Source: Magallana gigas (Eukaryota). From it: 64,000 bases of DNA. The first letter of the stretch is position 1. The number at the start of each line of letters is the position of its first letter. This document shows positions 21,478 to 35,630 of the stretch, piece by piece. The notes below the pieces were generated by a model. It worked only from the letters and a program-made list of their open reading frames with translations. It had not been told where the DNA came from and did no database searches. Where the stretch lies: assembly GCF_963853765.1 (NCBI RefSeq), contig NC_088856.1:25296001-25360000 (forward strand). The letters are read 5' to 3'. A program made the translations under genes and the position numbers.

Positions 21478-24400
21478 ACCAAACTAACAGCATTGTAGCA
21501 TCCTCACTAAAAACTCAGTGTATGCATAGTAGGCATAGATCGACTAACACTTGCCGTCCGATCAGTCCCTCTAACCAAGCCCCCCACTCCTCATTAAAAC
21601 CTACCCCATCTCCCAAACCCAAGCCCAGTAGTACACCCAAATCTCACAGCTCGGTTAATTTGATTATGCCTATCATGAAAAACACTGTTAGTGTTGATAT
21701 CTATGATACTCCCATGCGTGCATTGGTTGATACAGGTGCATCTATCTCATGTATTACATCCTCTCTTGTGACTAGGTTAGGGATAGACAAGAGTTCAATT
21801 CAATCAACTAATGCAACTGATGCGGTCGCTGTTGGCGGTGAAGTTCATCGCAGTCTTGGTGTTCTATCCTTGCCAATTTCTTTTGATGGTTTTGTTTTTA
21901 CACATGATTTTCAGGTTTATGACAAATTCCATCAACCTCTTATTTTGGGCTTAGATTTTTTAAGAGCAAATGATGCTGTTCTTAGCATTGCACAGAACAC
22001 TCTCTCTCTTAAGGACCCTATTTCTAACCATGTCCTTGCAATTGACGTTAATTCAGGTCTTGCTAGAGTTTGTCAAACAGTCACTGTCAACCCAGGGTGT
22101 GTCATGGCAATTGAGGTATTTATCTCAAGTTCATTAAAAGGTGCTCATGTTCTGTTGGAACCTTCACAACAACTTCCCAAGTTAGGCCTTGCAGGAGCCA
22201 AATGCTTAGTTGATACCCTAAACAACGAGATTCATTATATGCAAGTCATCAATCCTACAACTGACCCAATTACTTTGTCAGCAAATACATGCATTGCATC
22301 TGCCACAGTTGTTAATCCTGATACTGTACTATCTCTAGACAACCCAAAACCATCCAATACAGACTCTGATCCCAAACCACCACAAGGTTGTCCAATAGAT
22401 TTTGATCTTTCTGACTCTAATCTTAATCCCACACAAAAACAGATTCTTCTAGCTTTTCTCAACAAACATAGATCTGTTTTTGCAACAGAATTATCAGAAT
22501 TAGGCAACTGTGCTGTTCAATCCCATCGCATAGAAACTGGTGATGCATTTCCTGTCCGACAGCGATTTTATCGACAGTCCCCAGAAGTAAATGCTGAGAT
22601 GAATAGACAACTAGAGGAGATGTTAGAAGCCAATATCATTGAAGAGTCAACATCTATGTGGCAAAGTCCAGTTGTCATGGTTAAAAAGAAAAATGGCCAA
22701 CTACGTTTTGCGATAGATTATAGAAAGCTAAACTCTGTCACAAAACAATACACATTTCCCTTACCTCGTTTGGAAGATGTTTTTGACACAATTGGCATTT
22801 CTAAAGCACAGATATTTTCTACTCTAGACTTAGCTTCTGGTTTTTGGCAAATACCCATGGATCCTGAAACTGCCCACAAATCAGCATTCGTTACCCCTAC
22901 TGGAGTGTATCAGTGGAAACGTATGCCCTTTGGCCTTGTCAATGCCCCAGCTAGCTTTCAGGCACTTATGACCCAAGTACTTAGGGGTCTTAACTGGAAA
23001 ACCTGTCTTGTCTATGTAGATGATATTCTTGTCTTCTCTAGCTCCTTTGAACAACACCTTCAGCATTTGGATCAAATCTTTTCTCGCCTTAGTTCAGCAG
23101 GTCTTACATTGAAACCTACCAAATGCTCTTTTGCTCAACGCCAAGTGCAGTATCTTGGTCATGTCATTACCAAAGATGGAGTCCAAGTGGATGTTTCTAA
23201 GACAGATGCTGTGAAGTCATTCCCAACACCAAAATGTACAAAAGATGTCCGATCTTTTCTTGGCCTATGTAACTACTATCGAAAATTTATTCATGACTAC
23301 AGTACCATCATAGGACCATTAACAGCATTACTGAGAAAAGACAACAAATTCAAATGGTGTGATGAATGTCAAACAGCCTTCGATCTACTGAAAACAGCTC
23401 TCACATCGCCACCTGTTTTAGCATATCCAGACAACTCCAAACCATTCATCCTTACTACTGATGCATCTGGAACAGCATTAGGGTTTATTCTTGGACAATT
23501 TGATGACAACGGAAAAGAGCGTGTAATTGCATTTGGTGGACGATCCCTCAACAAACATGAAAGAAACTACACCATATCAGAACGCGAATGTTTGGCCATT
23601 ATTGAAGGTATTAAGAATTACCATGTTTATCTCGCTAGCAAACCATTCACAGTGTACACTGACCACTCAGCTCTTAAATGGCTACAGACTGTCAAGCATG
23701 ATACAGGCAGACTCGCTCGTTGGTCCATCCTCTTACAGGGCTACAACTTCAATGTAATCCACAAGAAAGGCAAGAAAAATGGAGTAGCTGATGCCCTCTC
23801 CAGAAGAAACTACCCACAACCACCCAAGAAAGCTGAAGAACCAGAGGATGTCATACCCAGTACTGCTACAGTATCCGTCCTCTCTACTCCATCTGAACAC
23901 AATCAAGCGACTTTCTTCTATAAAAATGAAAACTGTGGATCTCAGCAATCTAAACACCAAACACAATCAAACGTATGCACCATTGACGAATCTACAGAAA
24001 TTGGTCAGCTTCAAAGCCAGTGTCCAGACTTTGGTCCCTTACATGCTTACTTTACAGATGGAGCTGTTCCGTCAACAAAACAAGAGCGTGACAAACTTAT
24101 CTCAGAGAGCAAACATTATGTTTTCTTAGACCATACACTATACCATTTTTACGAACCTCGCTCAAAGAAAATAGCTCAATGTCAACCAATCTTAAAACAG
24201 TTAGCCGTACCACGTTGTCTAAGAGAAGATGTTCTGAGATCCTACCATGACAGTCTAGCAGGAGGAGCACATCTTGGCCTTGACAGAACATATCGAGCAA
24301 TTCAACTGAAGTACTATTGGCCCAAGATGTACCAAAATGTTGCCGACTATATTCGCTCCTGTGATACATGCCAGCATGCCAAGAAACAAACCACTTTACC

Positions 24401-25763
24401 ACGCGCTCCCCTCGTCAATATGCCAGTTGAGGACACTTTCCTACGTCTCCATATGGATATCTTGGGACCACTTACCACATCAAAACAAGGCCACAAATAC
24501 ATCCTACTGGTCGTGGACTCATTCAGCAAATTTCCAGAAGCATTTCCATTAAAAACTCAAGAATCAAAAGAAATAGCTGAAGTTCTCTTCGCAGAAATAT
24601 TTGCAAGATATGGAGCACCACGTGTGATTGTGAGTGATAGAGGACAGAACTTTCTGAGCAAACTTGTTACGGCAGTGTGTGAAATATTCCAAGTCACCAG
24701 ACATTTTACTAGTGCCTACCACCCTCAGACAAATGCAGCTTGCGAAAGAATGAACAGTACCATTGCCCAGTGCCTCCGCACCTACATCAATCCTGAACAA
24801 ACAAACTGGAACAAACTCCTTCCAGGAGTTATGATGGCCTTGAGGATGAGTCCTTCTACACAAGCATCTGATCTGTCACCATACCATCTTGTCTTTGGGA
24901 AAGAAATGAACCTACCATTTGATACTTCACTAATTCCCAAAAATGGACTCAATAAGGATGCAAAAACTCATGTAAGTGATCTCATGTCTCACCTTAAAAT
25001 CGTGAAGAATATCGCAACCAAAAACATCCAAAAAGCCCAACAGAAACAGAAACAGCAGTATGACAAAAAAACTCAAGTTCGAGAGTTTCGTGTAGGACAA
25101 TATGTACTGCTTCACACAACAAAAGTTCCTCAAGGATTGTCACCTAAATTAACCAGCCCATGGGAAGGTCCCTTCTATGTGTGTAGAGTTGGTCCAAACA
25201 ACACCTACAAAGTGCGCAGATGCTCCAACAACAAGGAACTGAAATCCTTCATTCATGTGAACAGACTCAAACCCTACAATGACCCAGATCATCGTCCAAG
25301 TTTTGACCCACCTCGTCCAGATGAACCCATTGATGATGCCCATTATCCCCCAGACCCTGTAATCCCGCAACCTCCAGATGCACCAATTGATGCTACTCAT
25401 CAACCCCCAGAAACTGCACCCGTGCAACAAACCATACAAGTACAACAGGAGCCAAAGTTACCTCCTACTCAAACTGCTGACAATCCAGCACCTTACCCGC
25501 AGCGTTTACGTGCTCAATGTTCATCAGACTCCTCAGTACAGACACAGGACGTCTCTGATAAAACTTATTTTGTTGACAAACTACTGCGCTACAAGTTTGT
25601 CAAAGGCAAGAAGCTATTCCGAGTCAAATGGCTAGGATACGGCGAACGAACATGGGAACCTGAAGAAAATCTTCCTCCCTGTATGGTTCGCAAGTTTCAT
25701 ATTACCAAAACACAACAGGGTTCGGCCCGCAAGAAGAGGACAAAACTGACTTGTTTTAAGTAG
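21447..25763 (+). CDS. pol: Pol polyprotein: aspartic protease, RT, RNase H, integrase with GPY/F motif, chromodomain
   Basis: PR LVDTGAS; RT FAIDYRKLN and YVDDIL; RH TDAS..ERECLAI..TDH..ADALSR; IN H..H..CDTC, MDILGP, SDRG, ERMN and WEGPFY; chromodomain YFVDKLL..VKWLGY..TWEPEENL. Confidence 0.96.
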   Translation, partial: GNAPILSKDRHQTNSIVASSLKTQCMHSRHRSTNTCRPISPSNQAPHSSLKPTPSPKPKPSSTPKSHSSVNLIMPIMKNTVSVDIYDTPMRALVDTGASISCITSSLVTRLGIDKSSIQSTNATDAVAVGGEVHRSLGVLSLPISFDGFVFTHDFQVYDKFHQPLILGLDFLRANDAVLSIAQNTLSLKDPISNHVLAIDVNSGLARVCQTVTVNPGCVMAIEVFISSSLKGAHVLLEPSQQLPKLGLAGAKCLVDTLNNEIHYMQVINPTTDPITLSANTCIASATVVNPDTVLSLDNPKPSNTDSDPKPPQGCPIDFDLSDSNLNPTQKQILLAFLNKHRSVFATELSELGNCAVQSHRIETGDAFPVRQRFYRQSPEVNAEMNRQLEEMLEANIIEESTSMWQSPVVMVKKKNGQLRFAIDYRKLNSVTKQYTFPLPRLEDVFDTIGISKAQIFSTLDLASGFWQIPMDPETAHKSAFVTPTGVYQWKRMPFGLVNAPASFQALMTQVLRGLNWKTCLVYVDDILVFSSSFEQHLQHLDQIFSRLSSAGLTLKPTKCSFAQRQVQYLGHVITKDGVQVDVSKTDAVKSFPTPKCTKDVRSFLGLCNYYRKFIHDYSTIIGPLTALLRKDNKFKWCDECQTAFDLLKTALTSPPVLAYPDNSKPFILTTDASGTALGFILGQFDDNGKERVIAFGGRSLNKHERNYTISERECLAIIEGIKNYHVYLASKPFTVYTDHSALKWLQTVKHDTGRLARWSILLQGYNFNVIHKKGKKNGVADALSRRNYPQPPKKAEEPEDVIPSTATVSVLSTPSEHNQATFFYKNENCGSQQSKHQTQSNVCTIDESTEIGQLQSQCPDFGPLHAYFTDGAVPSTKQERDKLISESKHYVFLDHTLYHFYEPRSKKIAQCQPILKQLAVPRCLREDVLRSYHDSLAGGAHLGLDRTYRAIQLKYYWPKMYQNVADYIRSCDTCQHAKKQTTLPRAPLVNMPVEDTFLRLHMDILGPLTTSKQGHKYILLVVDSFSKFPEAFPLKTQESKEIAEVLFAEIFARYGAPRVIVSDRGQNFLSKLVTAVCEIFQVTRHFTSAYHPQTNAACERMNSTIAQCLRTYINPEQTNWNKLLPGVMMALRMSPSTQASDLSPYHLVFGKEMNLPFDTSLIPKNGLNKDAKTHVSDLMSHLKIVKNIATKNIQKAQQKQKQQYDKKTQVREFRVGQYVLLHTTKVPQGLSPKLTSPWEGPFYVCRVGPNNTYKVRRCSNNKELKSFIHVNRLKPYNDPDHRPSFDPPRPDEPIDDAHYPPDPVIPQPPDAPIDATHQPPETAPVQQTIQVQQEPKLPPTQTADNPAPYPQRLRAQCSSDSSVQTQDVSDKTYFVDKLLRYKFVKGKKLFRVKWLGYGERTWEPEENLPPCMVRKFHITKTQQGSARKKRTKLTCFK

Positions 25764-25933
25764 ATGAACAATTAAGCCCTAGTTCTATCCTGTACCTGCC
25801 CTTTCCTATAATTCTACCTCTAACTATGCTCTCTGAGCCCCTCATCATGTATCATTGTTAATATCTCAATATATTGCTCAAAAGTTGTTATTTGTTATTT
25901 TGACTGTTTGATATTAACAATGAATACATGACC

Positions 25934-25974
25934 CTTTTTTTTTTTCCCCTAATCTTCCTCACTTCCTTCCCTAG
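25934..25974 (+). promoter_or_regulatory. Splice acceptor for a subgenomic env mRNA
   Basis: Long polypyrimidine tract, CTAAT branch-like motif and CTAG|G. The env ORF has no ATG of its own. Confidence 0.7.
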
Positions 25975-28394
25975 GTACCCCAGGACTTCCGCCTACATTG
26001 TTCCTCATTTGTCTTGTCTCCCTTCTTGGAGTTGTGCCTACTGGTAATGCTGCCACATACCAACGTTTAAATTATGGCGTCCTATTTGAGCAACAACAAC
26101 AGCTTTATCTTGGACAGGAGTATTGGTCGCATACTTTCCAAATTCCCCTGCCCAAGAAAGTGTATTTACACAGAGAGCTGTATTGCAACAACGCCCCTCA
26201 TTGTAAGTACGGCAAACATGTGATCAAAACACTCAATGCACTGCGGACCCAAACCATGGCAAACCTAAATGCTACCGTACATGATATTCACATGCTGATT
26301 CCACAAAGTCACCTTCCAAGACCTAAATCCTTCATCGGCTCATCTAGATCTAGATCCAAGCGCGGCATTTTTGACTTTGTAGGACAAATTTCAAAATCCC
26401 TTTTTGGAACAGCAACTTCTGATGATATAGCTACATTGCAACGACACATGCAAACTCTAAACAGAAACAATGCCCAAATTGCTCACACCATGGCCATTCA
26501 AGAGAAACATCTTTCTTCTTTTATATCTACTGTTGATGCCAGGTTTAATAATATAGTAAGTGCGGTAAAGAAAAATCATCAAGACACAGTAGCTCTCACA
26601 GACCTTTTACACAGCTCAGTTGACTCTGTAGAACATGAGTTTATATTATTAGAACAGCTCATCATGAAACAAACGAATGCATCAGCTCATTTACAACAGG
26701 CTTTAGATCGTGTCAAACTCAGCATACATGAACTCATCAAAGGAAAACTCTCACCTTATTTGATCACCCCTCAGGCAATAACATCGTCCCTTCACCAGAT
26801 CCAAAGCATTATGGACAAAAAGTATCCCCAGTTTACTATAATTCATAAAGATCCCCTTTACTATTTTACATATGGTGATTTCTTGTATGCAAGAGTTCAT
26901 TCCACCTTGTTTCTGACACTCAAAGTTCCCATCTCTCCATTTAAACAACCATTGTTATTGTATAATATTTACTCATTTCCTGTTCCAATTAATTCATCTA
27001 CTTCGCATGCCACAAAACTCAAGGATGTACCCCAGTATTTCGCACATACACATGACAATCAACATTTCACAGTGATAACTTCTCACCAGATATCTAAATG
27101 CATTGGAACTTCAATGCTATTTTGCTCATTTCATTTAGCACTCACATCATCTGCATCACCCTCGTGCATTTCAGCATTATTCTACAATCAAAAGGAATCG
27201 GTTCACTTTTTATGTGACTTTCGCTTTCTAACCAATGAAATCAAACCAAATATTGTAGAGTTATCTCCCTCTAACACTCTTATGTACCAAACCCCTATGG
27301 TTGCTCTTGACTGCCCTTCTGGTCAACGAATTATCAAAGGATGTCCCTTTTGTGTCATGCAGTTACCTTGCCTCTGCTCAGTAACATCAGGTACCCTGTT
27401 CTTACCCCCCAGGATGGGTTCATGCAACAATAACTCGCAGTCAGTTACTGTCCTTCACCCAGTCAACCTCGCACTCATCCAAGAATTTTTTGATCCTAAA
27501 TCTCATTCAACTATCTTTGGTGATACAACATTTCAACAATATCTTGATCTCAAAGTTCCAAATTTCAAAATTTTCAATCATTCATTTTCTCATTTTGTGG
27601 CTGCTGATCAAAAACAACACTTAAATTTAAAGAAAATGGCAAAATTAGCACAAAAAGATGCAACAGTGTTTCAATCTTTGGCAGAATCCATGTTAGATGG
27701 TCAAATTGACTTTGCTGTGACCTCTTTCCCTGACACTAGTGGTACCATTGCACTAATCGCTTCTGCCCTCGTTCTCATTTGCATGATTTATTGCATTTGG
27801 TCTTTCTTTAAAATTAGAAAACTGACAACTATTATTACACTTACACAACTTCCTAACTCTGCTAAAGCTTTACCTACCCCTCACCCTGATTTATTATCCT
27901 TATATTCTAACCCTTCCCAAACTGACAACCAAGTAACAACTCTTCAAAATGTTTACACCTCGTTCACATCTCCTTGGCCCTATGTTACACTGTCTGTCCT
28001 AACAACACTGCTTATTTGCTTTTATCTGCACAAACTGTGGAAAAAGTTTAAACGCACGCACAAAACCACTCTTCACTTAGAAATCACAACAGGAACTGAA
28101 TGCATGCTCTTTCCAATCACTACTCTTCCACTTTGTCCAGACAACTGGAACATAACCCCACCACAGGTCATCAACAACATCATACTTCGAAGAACATACC
28201 TCGGCTGGGCTAATTTCACAATCAATGCATCAGATCTCACCATACAAAACAAACATACCAACACCATACTCAACATACCAAACACATTCCGACTTTCACC
28301 ACTTAAAGCACTGAGACTACGTCGTCTGTTACAACAACCATATACTGCATACTACCTTTTGTCCCATCATCAGTATTATCAATTGCTTCAGTAA
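25975..28394 (+). CDS. env: Envelope glycoprotein, F-type class I fusion protein
   Basis: Signal-like LFLICLVSLLGVVPTGNA; furin site RSKR followed by GIFDFVGQISKSLFGTATSDD; heptad region; Cys-rich region; TM IALIASALVLICMIYCIWSFF; second hydrophobic segment. Confidence 0.9.
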
Positions 28395-28892
28395 AAATTT
28401 AATTAGAAATTCCTATGTAGATCTAGGTTATCAAAACTTGCCATTGGTATGAGAGTTGCATACCGAGTCTGATTTGTTCTTAACAGTGTTTATATTGTGT
28501 TTTGGTAAATTTTTACCATAATGATTGATGCATATGTATCACTTCCATTGTACTTAGTACATGTATTTACATGTACTCACATGTCTATGAGTTTCTACAT
28601 GTACTTTTGTATATATAATTACATCTTGCTAATTAACCAAGATATTCTACCAGATTTTTGTGTTTGACATTGATTGCAATGATCTCTAATTTCAATATTT
28701 CATATCATGTTTTCCTTATACATTTTTTATTTTATTCAACAATGTTTGTATTAGAGTACCTAGTTTAGTTATTTTTCTTTAGGGTAGTATTTTCCTACAT
28801 TTTAGGATGTCAACACTAGTTTTTGTTGATTTTATATTTTTTTGTTTTGTATGCATACAATTTTTTTATCTTCGGGGACAAAGATTTCCGAA

Positions 28893-28902
28893 CCAGGAGG
28901 GA
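28893..28902 (+). promoter_or_regulatory. Polypurine tract
   Basis: CCAGGAGGGA lies 2 nt upstream of the 3' LTR. Confidence 0.65.
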
Positions 28903-28904
28903 TT

Positions 28905-30636
28905 TATCATCAGGTCTCATTGACCCTCTGATATTATTTTTATTATATATAATTTTAATGTAATATATCATTTCTCAAACTTATTCAAAAACAGTTCTTT
29001 TTGGTTAAATGCTTTTTACTACTTTTAATTACTACAATTCGTGACTAAGTCTCTGTTTAACTTGTGTCAAGCATTAACAATATCTTTTATTCTATAAATT
29101 AGACACGATAAGAAGTTAGGTACATATTAACACCATTCGATGCCACGAGGAATTTTGGATAATTTGCCAACAAACAACTTTTACATAATCACATGACAAT
29201 CAATTAAGAAAGCCTTTTGATGTCCCCTTTACTCAATTACTGTCAGGATTACGGATTAGCGCTGCTTTTGTTTAGGCCACGCTACATCCCTTCTTTCGGG
29301 TATGAGGCCCCCGACAGGGAAATTATTGTGTTTTCTTTTTAACTTTAATATTGTACACCTATCGTGTACCCTACCTTGACCAAGAGGAATTTTTGTATCA
29401 AAGCCCAGCGCGTCACTTTTGCTGGACGCTTCCTCAATAAAAGACGTTTTCTTCACATTTGAACTCTTGGTCATATTTTACAGGTAGGCAATATTTTACT
29501 TACTTTTTAATTATTTTTGTATTGTACGTTTTTATGATCTCAGGTTTATGTGTTCAATTTTACTTAATTTGTATAACACATCAATATAAGTTTGTACTTT
29601 ATTTTATGTGATTTTTCTTTGTTCTTGTTGCATGTAGATTAGTCATTTACATAGATCCCATTGTATGCTGTTGAAATGCGTAAATGTACAAAAGTAATTT
29701 AATATCGATTGAAAAATTATCTCATTTGAAAATCTAAAATTACTTTGGGTAGATTTATCTCAATATTTGAATTACTCTTTTTATTATTTTTATGCAACAC
29801 TTTTCCTGGAAATTTATGTGTCACATGACCAGTTCTAAATTTAGTCTCGGCTTTGTTTACATGAGTTCGCTTCCGCCCGAATTGAAAATGTCATGACTTA
29901 AGGAAAACATTGTTAATCTGCATAATACATTTGATAACTAAATGGCATAAAGATGTAAGTTGATAATTACATATTTTTACTGTAATTCGTTTAGGGATTT
30001 ATTGTCATTTCATACTTTATGATTCTGATTGAGGGTTTTTATGACAATAGACATGTACAGTGATGCTGTGTGTGTTTTCATTAAGCATTAATGATTTCAA
30101 TTCTTTTATTTGTTTTAACTTCATAAGTGAAAGTCCAGAATCAAAATCTATTTCATCTTTATTCAAACATATCTTTCGATTCAAATCATGAATTTAAATT
30201 GAGTACATGTAGTTTGAAATTATGCAAATAAGACCCTATGCTTATGTCTACTCCTTCATAATTTGTGTACCTTATCATGGCCAAGTGAAGTTCTCTACCG
30301 TTAAAGTTAATTCTCCCCACTTAAGTTAATCTTCCCATTTGATTATAAGCATTTATACTTGATGTGGTTTTTGTACTTTTGTTTATTTTTATTGATGTTT
30401 GCACATGTAAGTCATATGATTAATTTTACATAATGTGGTCATTGATATTTTATATTATCTGTTGCACTATTTTATATGTGCAAAGACTCATTGTTTATAA
30501 TCTTATGATTTATATGTCATGAGACTTTTGCTGGACGCTTCCTCAATAAAAGACGTTTTCTTCACATTTGAACTCTTGGTCATATTTTACAGGTCAACTT
30601 TGATTATATATTTAAACCCCATATTCCATGATGACA
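28905..30636 (+). repeat. 3' LTR (1732 bp)
   Basis: Matches the 5' LTR; only four differences were spotted by eye. Confidence 0.93.
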
Positions 30637-31523
30637 AATAGTTCAGAATTTAAAAACATCAAAGATATAAAAAAATTACCAAAATATCAATTTTTGTAAT
30701 AGTTTGTCGTAATTAGTCTGATTTATTTTTTGCTTCTTAGTGTTTCACTTTCTCATGCTGGAGACTTGGGTTTCTTGTGGCTAGATAGTATGCAAATCTT
30801 CCTTACCTAAACCAAATCGGCAAAAACGCTCAATAATGCCGTGCACTCTGCTGTTGAAATAGATGTGAAATAGATAGTAATGAGATAAATGTTTATAAAA
30901 TACAGTTGTATACGCACGGAAAACGTTCAAAAAGTCCTTGTTTATTGACAAATGATGAATTTTGCACATTTTGGTTTTCATCAAATGGAACGGTTACCCC
31001 CCCCCCCCCCCCTTTTCCAAATTGCTGGATCCGGCTCTGAAAGACTTATAGAAACGAGTTTTGAATAAAAATTAGATGACAACCTCTGCACTGGTAAGGA
31101 GTATCAAATGAATGACGAAACGGAACAGATCGACAGGCACACAAATTTCAGAAATTCTTGTAATTGTTTTCCTGTGTCTGTTTCAACATCGCACAAACCA
31201 CACACTGTGGCAGATCGTGAACTGACCGCATGGATTTTAGAATTGATGTTGCTACTCCTGGATTAATACTATCATTAATCTATTAATATGTTGGATGTAC
31301 ATCTAGTGCCGCCATGGTCTTCAAAATGATGCATACGTTATGCACTCTGTAAGAGCGAAACCCGTGTTCGAAGTGCATGCGAAGCAAGGCAGTCCTATCG
31401 GTGCCAGATAATACGTATACATTGGAAATTTTTTTAAAGAATAATCACATTTTATGTTTCATTTAATGTGATTTCCTTTATTCTATTCTTACAAACATTT
31501 TACTACAATGTGTTGTTCGCTCA

Positions 31524-31677: not shown

Positions 31678-32188
31678 CAGTTGATTATTGTCAAAATATC
31701 ACTTAGATGCAAGGTATGTGTAATTTTTGCTGCGCTCGCCAGAACGCACCATAAAACTTATCAATTTTAGAAATGACTTGGCATAAGAAATACTGTTATA
31801 TATACTTTTTGGCATTTATGTAGAGGTTAAACAACCAAACACAAAACTTCAGATTATCTGTAGATGGTTAAAACGAAATTGACAAGGTGCAATTTATAAA
31901 CAGAAGTATTCCAAGAATGTCCTAGAATGTGGAGTCGAGCATGTGTATTCCAGTAAAAAAGGACTAAGTTAAACGTAGTTGCTATTATAGCGCTCGAGAG
32001 CGCTAGCAAACACTTTTTCATCAATGCCTTTCTGAATTTGATATCGGATACGTAAATAAAAAAAAATAATTAAAAAAAATATCATCGAAATAATTCAAAC
32101 TTCCGCCAGATTCCTTTGTACCAAACCAAATCTCTGTGTGCGGAGAGACAGAAGACTATGGGTTTGCGAAATGAATCAGAAGCAACTG

Positions 32189-32280
32189 TGACGTCACAGA
32201 TATGCAACGTCATAATATCTTCACAGCTGTAAATTAAAAAAAAAAAGCATCTACATGATTCAGAAGCAATTGTGACGTCA
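32189..32280. promoter_or_regulatory. Two perfect CRE palindromes (TGACGTCA) in a short tandem duplication upstream of the micropeptide gene
   Basis: TGACGTCA at 32189-32196 and 32273-32280. Confidence 0.4.
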
Positions 32281-32590
32281 CGATTCATACGTCATAATAC
32301 CCTCCAGCTATTTCTGAGTAAAGGTGTTGCTTGCCTCCCAGGAATATTCTTCGGAAAATTTTCAGTTTTCAATTATTCCTAAAGCGGAATATTGTATTCA
32401 TTGTTCATTAAGAAGTTTACCAGGACATCAAGAATTCTGTAAGTAGATGTAATTCTGAATATCTGAAAATTAATTTTATTATTTTAGAAATGTAAATTCT
32501 CATTTCACACGATTCTTGTCATGTTTCACGGGTTGATTTATAATTCAATGAAATATCCAATTGTTTCCCTTCTCATTGATAGATACTAAA

Positions 32591-32869
32591 ATGATAGGAT
32601 TCACGATCTTCGTTATGGCGGTGTTTGAAGGATTCAAGTGGCTGAGAAAAGACGGTAAATATTTACCATATATGTACATAAATATCAATAGCATTAATAT
32701 ATACATGCATTGTTATGTATATTTTTTTTCAGTGCTACTAAGATGAAATTGTCTGAAAAAAATGAATAATGCATTTTGTATTCATATCATTTCAGATGAG
32801 GCGGATATGAACCGCGAGATCTCTGAACAGATTGATGCAATGCTAGAGAGCATTCAGAGATCATTGTAA
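32591..32869 (+). CDS. Putative 45-aa spliced micropeptide MIGFTIFVMAVFEGFKWLRKDDEADMNREISEQIDAMLESIQRSL
   Basis: Exon 32583-32654 (AG|...G|GTAAAT, ATG at 32591) and exon from 32796 (TTTCAG|, TAA at 32867-32869). Upstream donor GTAAGT at 32439 and AATAAA at 32879. Differences among paralogs fall mostly at third codon positions. Confidence 0.6.
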
Positions 32870-33063
32870 AAATGTTGAAATAAAACATTTGACCGATCCC
32901 ATTCTGGCCTAATGTTTGATTTTATTTTATTTCGTGTAATGTACATTCAAGTTCAATCAATTTTTTTTATGCTTTTACTGGAACGGTTGCAAATTAACAA
33001 AAACAAAGGATGACCACAAAAGTGCAGGGAATGGGTTATACAAAGACAATGGCTTTACGCAAA

Positions 33064-34718: not shown

Positions 34719-35264
34719 CTGCAGGGTGGAAACACATTTTACATATTACAAACCTCTTTGGACATGCATATGTAATTTAGTCCACAAAATATCTATTTTA
34801 TGAGTCATAACAAGGCATGTCTCCAATAATATCATTAACATGGCGAACGTAAACAGCGAATTTCAAATAAGATGTTAAAAGTGGCAGTAATTTTGTTGCA
34901 AAATCAGTTAATGTGGTAAAATGGGATTATAAAAGAGCAACATTGTATTTGAGACCAATCATCAGAAAATTAAGGCAACATACAGCGCGATATATTTTTT
35001 TAGGAATGAAGCGAATATATGGGACGAATTCAATCATTAAACCGGGTCTGTAGGACATCTGTCATTTTAACGATAGAGAATTCTATCTAGGAGATGGGAT
35101 TTTCATGGTTTTGGAGGAGATTCTGTCCACCTTCTTACTTGGTTTGACACCTTCACCCAATCTTGGAACAGTCTTTCATAACCATGTTGTGGTTGAAAAT
35201 TAAAGATTGTGAAACCTGCTGATGGATAATATAGCTGATCCAGACGTGTAATGGATTGGTCACT

Positions 35265-35630
35265 GCACCAAATGTAATGGGATGGGAGAAGTAATGATTG
35301 ACCAGACAGGGATTCGAACCCGGGCCCCCAGAATCTCTAGTCAGGTACTCTACCAACTGAGCTATCTGACACCTATATTCTAACCGGTCTGACCGCCACA
35401 TTCCTCCCCCTCAAATGATATTTGCCCTTGAAGATCACCCCAGGCTCTTCCCATGGCAAGAGTTCACCTGTCAGTTCCAGGTTTGGTCACAGCACCAAAT
35501 GTAATGGGATGGGAGAAATATTGACGTATCAGACATGGATTTGAACAGGGGCCCCCTGAATCTCTGGTCAGGTGCTCTTCCAACTGAGCTATCTGGCGCC
35601 GGTATTTGAACCAGTCTGACCGTCACACAT
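35265..35630 (-). repeat. Two tandem tRNA-derived (SINE-like) units, period about 227 bp
   Basis: Minus strand has A box TAGCTCAGTTGGTAGA and B box GGTTCGAATCC. The second copy is degenerate and the anticodon arm is irregular. Confidence 0.65.

Follow-up and report, generated by a model that had tools for sequence, protein, structure and literature searches.

An intact errantivirus in the Magallana gigas genome

We analyzed a 64,000-nt stretch of the genome of the bivalve Magallana gigas (NCBI RefSeq assembly GCF_963853765.1, contig NC_088856.1, positions 25,296,001 to 25,360,000, forward strand), hereafter the window. It contains a 12.5-kb long terminal repeat (LTR) element (18139–30636), in which gag, pol and env each run uninterrupted between the two LTRs (Table 1). 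The third gene, env, occupies a stop-to-stop frame of 813 codons on the plus strand (25953–28394). The two LTRs differ by just two substitutions and two indels (1 and 6 nt), hence the insertion is young. Pfam searches found a capsid-type Retrotrans_gag domain in gag (E 1e-7), a pol domain order of protease, reverse transcriptase, RNase H and integrase, which is that of Ty3/gypsy, and a chromodomain C-terminal to the integrase (pol residues 1376–1418, E 1.1e-7). A Magallana gigas gene model is 93.6–100% identical to the element over four stretches in gag, pol and env, and the nearest named relatives of Env are bivalve proteins from several genera (35–67% identity), in agreement with an initial annotation of the window that had placed this env in a non-insect host. 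As a bivalve Ty3/gypsy errantivirus, the element is intact and young and carries a chromodomain, and it fits an errantivirus in the operational sense used in the text of Chary and Hayashi (eLife 2026, PMC13524379), with uninterrupted gag, pol and env, a Ty3/gypsy pol and an F-type Env.

Table 1. Features of the element, in window coordinates; residue numbers are those of the env frame.
Feature	Position	Strand	Description
5' LTR	18139–19875	+	1737 bp; starts TA, ends CA; target site duplication (TSD) AATA at 18135–18138
Candidate primer-binding site	19879–19890	+	Putative; starts TGG, 3 nt past the LTR
gag	19905–21446	+	From first ATG outside the LTR to TAG; tandem repeat, Retrotrans_gag, Cys/His knuckle region
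Candidate env splice donor	21268–21276	+	G/GTAAGT, inside the gag knuckle's first CxxC; exon end 21270, phase 1
gag TAG and hairpin	21444–21477	+	TAG in the pol frame, then after 8 nt a 10-bp hairpin; candidate readthrough signal
pol	21447–25763	+	1438 aa, uninterrupted; protease, reverse transcriptase, RNase H, integrase, C-terminal chromodomain
env splice acceptor	25955–25974	+	Polypyrimidine tract and AG; phase 1
Env signal sequence	25975–26051	+	N-terminal; residues 9–33, hydropathy 2.0; putative cleavage site
Class I F ectodomain	26052–27743	+	Residues 34–597; profile and fold
Furin-type site RSRSKR	26346–26363	+	Residues 132–137; sequence, alignment
Fusion peptide	26364–26426	+	Residues 138–158; phmmer, hydrophobic moment, alignment
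Heptad helices	26427–26738	+	Residues 159–262, downstream of the fusion peptide; hydrophobic moment, model
F membrane anchor (TM1)	27744–27809	+	Residues 598–619
Internal signal-peptide-like segment	27810–27869	+	Residues 620–639; basic residues, 8-residue core, A-x-A end
Thr/Pro-rich linker	27870–27983	+	Residues 640–677; net charge not positive, likely lumenal
Last membrane helix and basic cluster	27984–28064	+	Residues 678–704
C-terminal domain and stop	28065–28394	+	Residues 705–813; basic, beta-rich; predicted Mononegavirales-matrix-like fold
Candidate polypurine tract	28891–28901	+	Putative; short purine-rich tract preceding the 3' LTR
3' LTR	28905–30636	+	1732 bp; followed by TSD AATA at 30637–30640

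Both LTRs (starting at 18139 and 28905) begin with TA instead of the usual TG and end with CA, and their terminal inverted repeat is imperfect. Each also holds an exact 71-nt duplication that contains AATAAA (18649–18719 and 19763–19833; 29415–29485 and 30524–30594). The duplicated sequence ends in TTTTACAG immediately before GT; copy 1 runs on as a donor-like GTAGGC and copy 2 is acceptor-like, and the copies look as if an intron of ~1.1 kb sat in the LTR-derived leader. The N-terminal region of Gag, 5' of the capsid domain, includes about seven 51-nt tandem repeats (~20051–20400), each encoding an acidic, Ser/Thr/Asn-rich unit of 17 residues.

Env carries a class I F-type ectodomain

The furin-type site of Env is followed directly by an amphipathic fusion peptide, GIFDFVGQISKSLFGTATSDD, and the two together (residues 132–158) lie within the interval 26341–26430, which the initial annotation had singled out as following the baculovirus F/errantivirus pattern. 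Two independent comparisons supported this assignment: Pfam Baculo_F matched Env residues 77–426 (E 2.3e-15), and phmmer aligned the motif in register with that of a solved 'fusion protein' (9w4c/9w4d, E 7e-7). A regular expression for furin site plus peptide had a single match when the window was translated in all six frames and none in 20,000 Env shuffles, a lenient test as the expression was written after the motif had been seen. The bare furin motif R-x-K/R-R carries little weight since it occurs 49 times across the six frames. When conservation was scored on 128 relatives (alignment A1), 76 kept the strict R-x-K/R-R and 121 the P1 arginine, while in the LFGTA core F was kept in 124, G in 127 and A in 121.

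The segment behind the fusion peptide is heptad-like, with a hydrophobic moment of 0.77–1.25 at period 3.5 (for windows starting at residues 157–241), and the structure model places long helices at residues 156–208 and 217–262; the heptad-rich segment first noted from the sequence was thus borne out. The ectodomain, modeled as a monomer, adopts a paramyxo-/pneumovirus F fold and matches the F proteins of respiratory syncytial virus and human metapneumovirus (RSV/hMPV). Its deviation from F structures is high (rmsd 6–12 Å), which is probably due to conformation. A fold search returned 51 matches at E ≤ 0.001. The best viral match was an abalone herpesvirus protein close in length to Env (801 aa; BFVD A0A145VUZ2, E 6.8e-26), and herpesviral and jingchuviral proteins ranked above baculovirus F (E 1e-14). 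Matches of the ectodomain profile to coronavirus HR1 were set aside as heptad similarity only. Collectively, Env is almost certainly an F-type errantivirus Env; profile and predicted fold support a class I F fusogen, as initially proposed with structure prediction as the check, and trimerization, cleavage and fusion are its predicted properties.

A conserved tail extends beyond the F anchor

Env extends 194 residues beyond its F anchor. Drosophila Env-F (gypsy, ZAM and Idefix; Senti et al., 2025, PMC12992720) and baculovirus F have a furin site, fusion peptide, Cys pattern and transmembrane segment (TM) in common with this Env. However, Drosophila Env-F is described in the text of that study as a signal peptide, an ectodomain, one TM and a cytoplasmic tail, whereas here, in place of the single TM and plain tail of baculovirus F and insect Env, we found two additional hydrophobic segments plus a folded domain. 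The env frame would encode a small polyprotein, unlike the insect Env described so far.

We counted the features of this layout in the 155 of 225 stored proteins that cover the region. TM1 was present in 151. Behind it came basic residues in 139 and an 8-residue hydrophobic core in 133, and small residues occupied positions –3 and –1 of this internal segment in 124 (background median 4%, with one background pair at 81%). The Thr/Pro linker had a net charge of zero or below in 146, the last membrane helix was found in 152, and a basic cluster lay behind that helix in 145; all criteria were combined in 101. The C-terminal domain was net positive in 148 of 156. Because basic residues follow each of the two long helices, the chain should cross the membrane once more between them; on this basis the segment in the middle is taken to be an internal signal peptide, and the C-terminal domain to face the cytosol. 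Judged by charge and hydropathy, three membrane crossings with a cytosolic tail are likely.

The modeled tail resembles Mononegavirales matrix proteins

The best structural matches of the tail model were matrix proteins of Mononegavirales (Borna disease virus M, VP40, and the M domains of paramyxo- and pneumoviruses). Matrix proteins of four families ranked first with two aligners and two libraries, independently, with a gap from 3.7 to 2.4 in one of the searches. The top viral matches of the tail were long glycoproteins that the ectodomain matched as well. Jingchuvirales glycoproteins, from ollusviruses (Aliusviridae) and Hubei myriapoda virus 8 (Myriaviridae), share a class I F ectodomain with Env, and their long chains match the tail model too, a putative and purely structural link. 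The myriapod virus glycoprotein has the same hydrophobic and charge layout as Env. These glycoproteins differ from Env in being genes that negative-strand RNA viruses carry, in their length (1017–1235 aa) and in sequence (identity about 10–23%). Viro3D also places Aliusviridae among class I.

Comparison of the tail with the myriavirus tail gave no link at the sequence level, and the ESM Atlas returned no usable match for residues 680–795 of relative P0003 or 843–1017 of P0087. A profile search for longer relatives, of 1575–4495 aa, returned none; aliusvirus glycoproteins are of a size outside this range.

Like the tail, Mononegavirales matrix proteins are basic, and bornavirus M is a single domain of similar size. 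They are, however, separate soluble gene products, whereas the tail is membrane-anchored and encoded in env behind F. Since it lies in the env frame behind a membrane helix, the tail is at most matrix-like, not a member of that group. From the structural models, we consider it probable that the tail is homologous to the matrix fold; whether it also works as a matrix is evenly balanced. The reading of Env as an F protein joined to a membrane-anchored, matrix-like domain in one polyprotein, with the tail derived from a matrix, is moderately favored. Searches of open-licence papers turned up no mention of a matrix-like domain, either in the Env of errantiviruses or in jingchuviral G. What is new here is the matrix-like tail and the polyprotein layout, for which the structural evidence is moderate.

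Expression of pol and Env

Three contigs in Sedimenticola metagenome-assembled genome records (L001, L002 and L003) encode relatives of Env, and two of these contigs also have a Ty3/gypsy pol. All three look like DNA from an animal host that was placed in bacterial bins. The ends of L002 overlap by 91 nt, and this contig is circularly permuted.

The TAG that ends gag is likely passed by stop-codon readthrough, judging from its sequence context. The hairpin 3' of it stands out from shuffled sequence (z –4.0, 0 of 200 shuffles), and the spacing of TAG, spacer and hairpin resembles the gammaretroviral readthrough signal. L002 has the same in-frame TAG between gag and pol (5881–5883), without a comparable hairpin. 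A nonsense mutation at the gag/pol junction is disfavored because L002 shares the TAG and the window has the hairpin 8 nt downstream.

Since env lacks a start codon (its first in-frame Met is residue 102, past the signal sequence), Env is most likely translated from spliced RNA. Of 13 AGs in the interval 25700–26060, the acceptor ending at 25974 ranked best, with 19/20 pyrimidines. For the donor, we considered the site in the gag knuckle. In 22 stored relatives, over 100 residues precede the Env start motif, and the gene models of 14 of these fuse CxxC-G/V to the Env signal sequence, 26–36 residues upstream of it; 12 of these 14 are named and come from seven bivalve genera. The remaining models join pol (5 of 22) or something else (3 of 22). 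A donor within gag has precedent, because env is expressed from spliced RNA in Drosophila and the idefix subclade splices from within gag (as described in PMC12992720), whereas the candidate donor here lies near the gag end. Against a Gag-Env fusion, the strong donor formed by the Cys-Gly-Lys codons could draw gene predictors. A search for Gag among longer proteins gave two matches and no transcript-derived Gag-Env fusion, which is weak evidence. LTR donors at 18778, 18928 and 19877 (a 3-codon ATG exon, phase 1) are alternatives to the gag donor.

The case for Gag-Env fusion by splicing in this element stands at about even. A universal gag-env splice was rejected, as env of L002 has a phase-0 acceptor and its own ATG and five of the 22 models join pol; env of L001 and L003 has in-frame ATGs before or within the signal. 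With the candidate donor so close to where gag ends, the fusion to Env would take in most of Gag, and with an equal chance on either side, a spliced fusion may leave a knuckle-less capsid protein tethered in the membrane in the bivalve subgroup.

Other features of the window

Outside the element, two long single frames on the minus strand (4220–5914 and 10636–12330) encode TRIM-like proteins with a B-box, coiled coil and NHL repeats. They lie in a tandem duplication of ~6.3 kb, of which a partial third unit is found near 13952–15000. Inverted dispersed repeats (15057–15716 and 32171–33023), 75–85% identical, are also present in this tandem gene region (1639–2182 and 7863–8333) and are probably remnants of host transposons. 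ARAGORN reported one tRNA-like sequence on the minus strand (35299–35371) with an unresolved four-base anticodon; it lies inside a short local duplication (35253–35400 and 35480–35627) and is probably a pseudogene or a SINE-like piece.

Discussion

F-type errantiviruses with a furin site and fusion peptide, including oyster members, have been described across animals (Chary and Hayashi, PMC13524379), with a chromodomain clade in cnidarians, molluscs and annelids; all 30 rows examined of the 36 bivalve rows in supplementary file 1 of that study are assigned ENV_F. Bivalve F-type errantiviruses as such were therefore already catalogued in 2026. The study's 'ancient' bivalve members (for example Cari_errantivirus_2 and _4 of Crassostrea ariakensis) resemble the present element in their gag-pol-env order, long LTRs, Ty3/gypsy pol, chromodomain past the integrase, and F-type Env with furin site and fusion peptide. 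The study, in its main text, rejects a baculovirus source and argues for a Precambrian age, with env as old as metazoans. The proposal in the initial annotation that this env came from a different or older donor, or by ancient inheritance, agrees with that conclusion and is correct and already published. The F-type fusogens of mollusc herpesviruses and jingchuviruses, and the matrix-like tail of Env, went unmentioned in that annotation. The published analysis of Env covers the ectodomain between signal peptide and TM alone, in contrast to the tail described here; 'matrix', 'cytoplasmic', 'splic' and 'readthrough' have no occurrence in the main text, and the element list has no 'gigas' entry.

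How might such an Env work? After entry into the endoplasmic reticulum, furin would cut behind Arg137 and free the fusion peptide, and the heptad helices would refold as in paramyxo-, pneumo- and baculovirus F, so that, by analogy with the family, a particle could fuse with another cell. Past the F anchor, an internal signal sequence would re-enter the membrane, and a probable signal-peptidase cut at A-x-A would release a second type I membrane protein. As predicted, this product has a short linker in the lumen, a single helix and, on the cytosolic side, a basic domain folded like the matrix proteins of Mononegavirales. This domain may line the inner leaflet and, matrix-like, organize the budding of Env-bearing particles. 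That an F-plus-matrix cassette of this kind, with a membrane-anchored Mononegavirales-type matrix freed by signal peptidase, is common to jingchuviruses and this large group of marine-invertebrate errantiviruses is a tentative proposal, to which we give slightly less than an even chance.

Some observations weigh against this topology. Behind the ectodomain there are just two long hydrophobic helices, the core of the middle segment is eight residues long and weak in this copy (KD 1.7), and the tail of this copy bears two sequons and three Cys. Env might then be a two-pass protein without internal cleavage, with the tail outside the cell as part of F1, serving attachment or stabilization. We regard this as quite improbable, given that each long helix is followed by a basic cluster (139 and 145 of 155), that the linker is free of positive charge (146 of 155), and that the tail is basic, with sequons conserved in only 3 of 155 relatives; sequon density failed to separate tail from ectodomain. 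A less remote, though still unlikely, explanation is that an ordinary ancient errantivirus F Env ends in an unrelated small beta-sandwich, with an adaptor, trafficking or receptor-binding role, and that the resemblance to matrix reflects a common arrangement. The agreement of two aligners and two libraries on four matrix families, and the coincidence of the tail's top viral matches with the glycoproteins that the ectodomain finds, both count against it.

For the origin of env, the F-plus-tail layout also appears to be present in jingchuviral glycoproteins; the models therefore suggest that env, as one unit, has a common origin with negative-strand RNA viruses rather than baculoviruses. A recent capture from a baculovirus, or a transfer from an insect errantivirus, would be in line with the name of the Baculo_F family and the baculovirus F matches, but is very improbable: the nearest relatives are bivalve, herpesviral and jingchuviral proteins come out ahead of baculovirus F in the fold search, and the pol chromodomain is that of the described cnidarian, mollusc and annelid clade. 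We rejected a baculovirus donor on the bivalve relatives, the fold-search ranking and the published account (PMC13524379). A different history, compatible with the matrix-like fold, is a real possibility, if somewhat less probable than not: the F-plus-tail unit could be native to ancient retroelements and have been captured by viruses (the malacoherpesvirus ORF68-like protein, jingchuviral G), or could have passed through a mollusc herpesvirus. The matrix fold is otherwise typical of Mononegavirales, which favors an origin there. On the other side stand the abalone herpesvirus protein as the best viral match of the ectodomain, the size of the family (3022 clusters at E ≤ 0.001), two bivalve relatives (P0020 and P0072) that annotators named after ORF68, and the argued age of env (PMC13524379). 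HaHV-1 p119/OsHV-1 ORF68 is listed as an envelope fusion protein in PMC6353905, and we infer that the 801-aa protein is p119. The malacoherpesvirus envelope fusion protein is a DNA virus gene and is absent among the 50 tail matches listed. A0A145VUZ2 and the ORF68-named relatives also raise the possibility of exchange between mollusc herpesviruses and these elements.

The source of bivalve errantivirus env was left open in the text of PMC13524379. A matrix-fold domain behind F, in common with jingchuviral glycoproteins, provides a second traceable character and opens the donor question to testing. Should the fold match be due to chance, the element would add another intact example to a family already described. 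If it is true, the apparently missing matrix of aliusviruses and myriaviruses, in an order without an annotated matrix gene, would sit inside their glycoprotein; the origin of F-type env would be tied to negative-strand RNA viruses; and the tail would explain how an LTR retrotransposon buds enveloped particles, namely with a borrowed budding machine.
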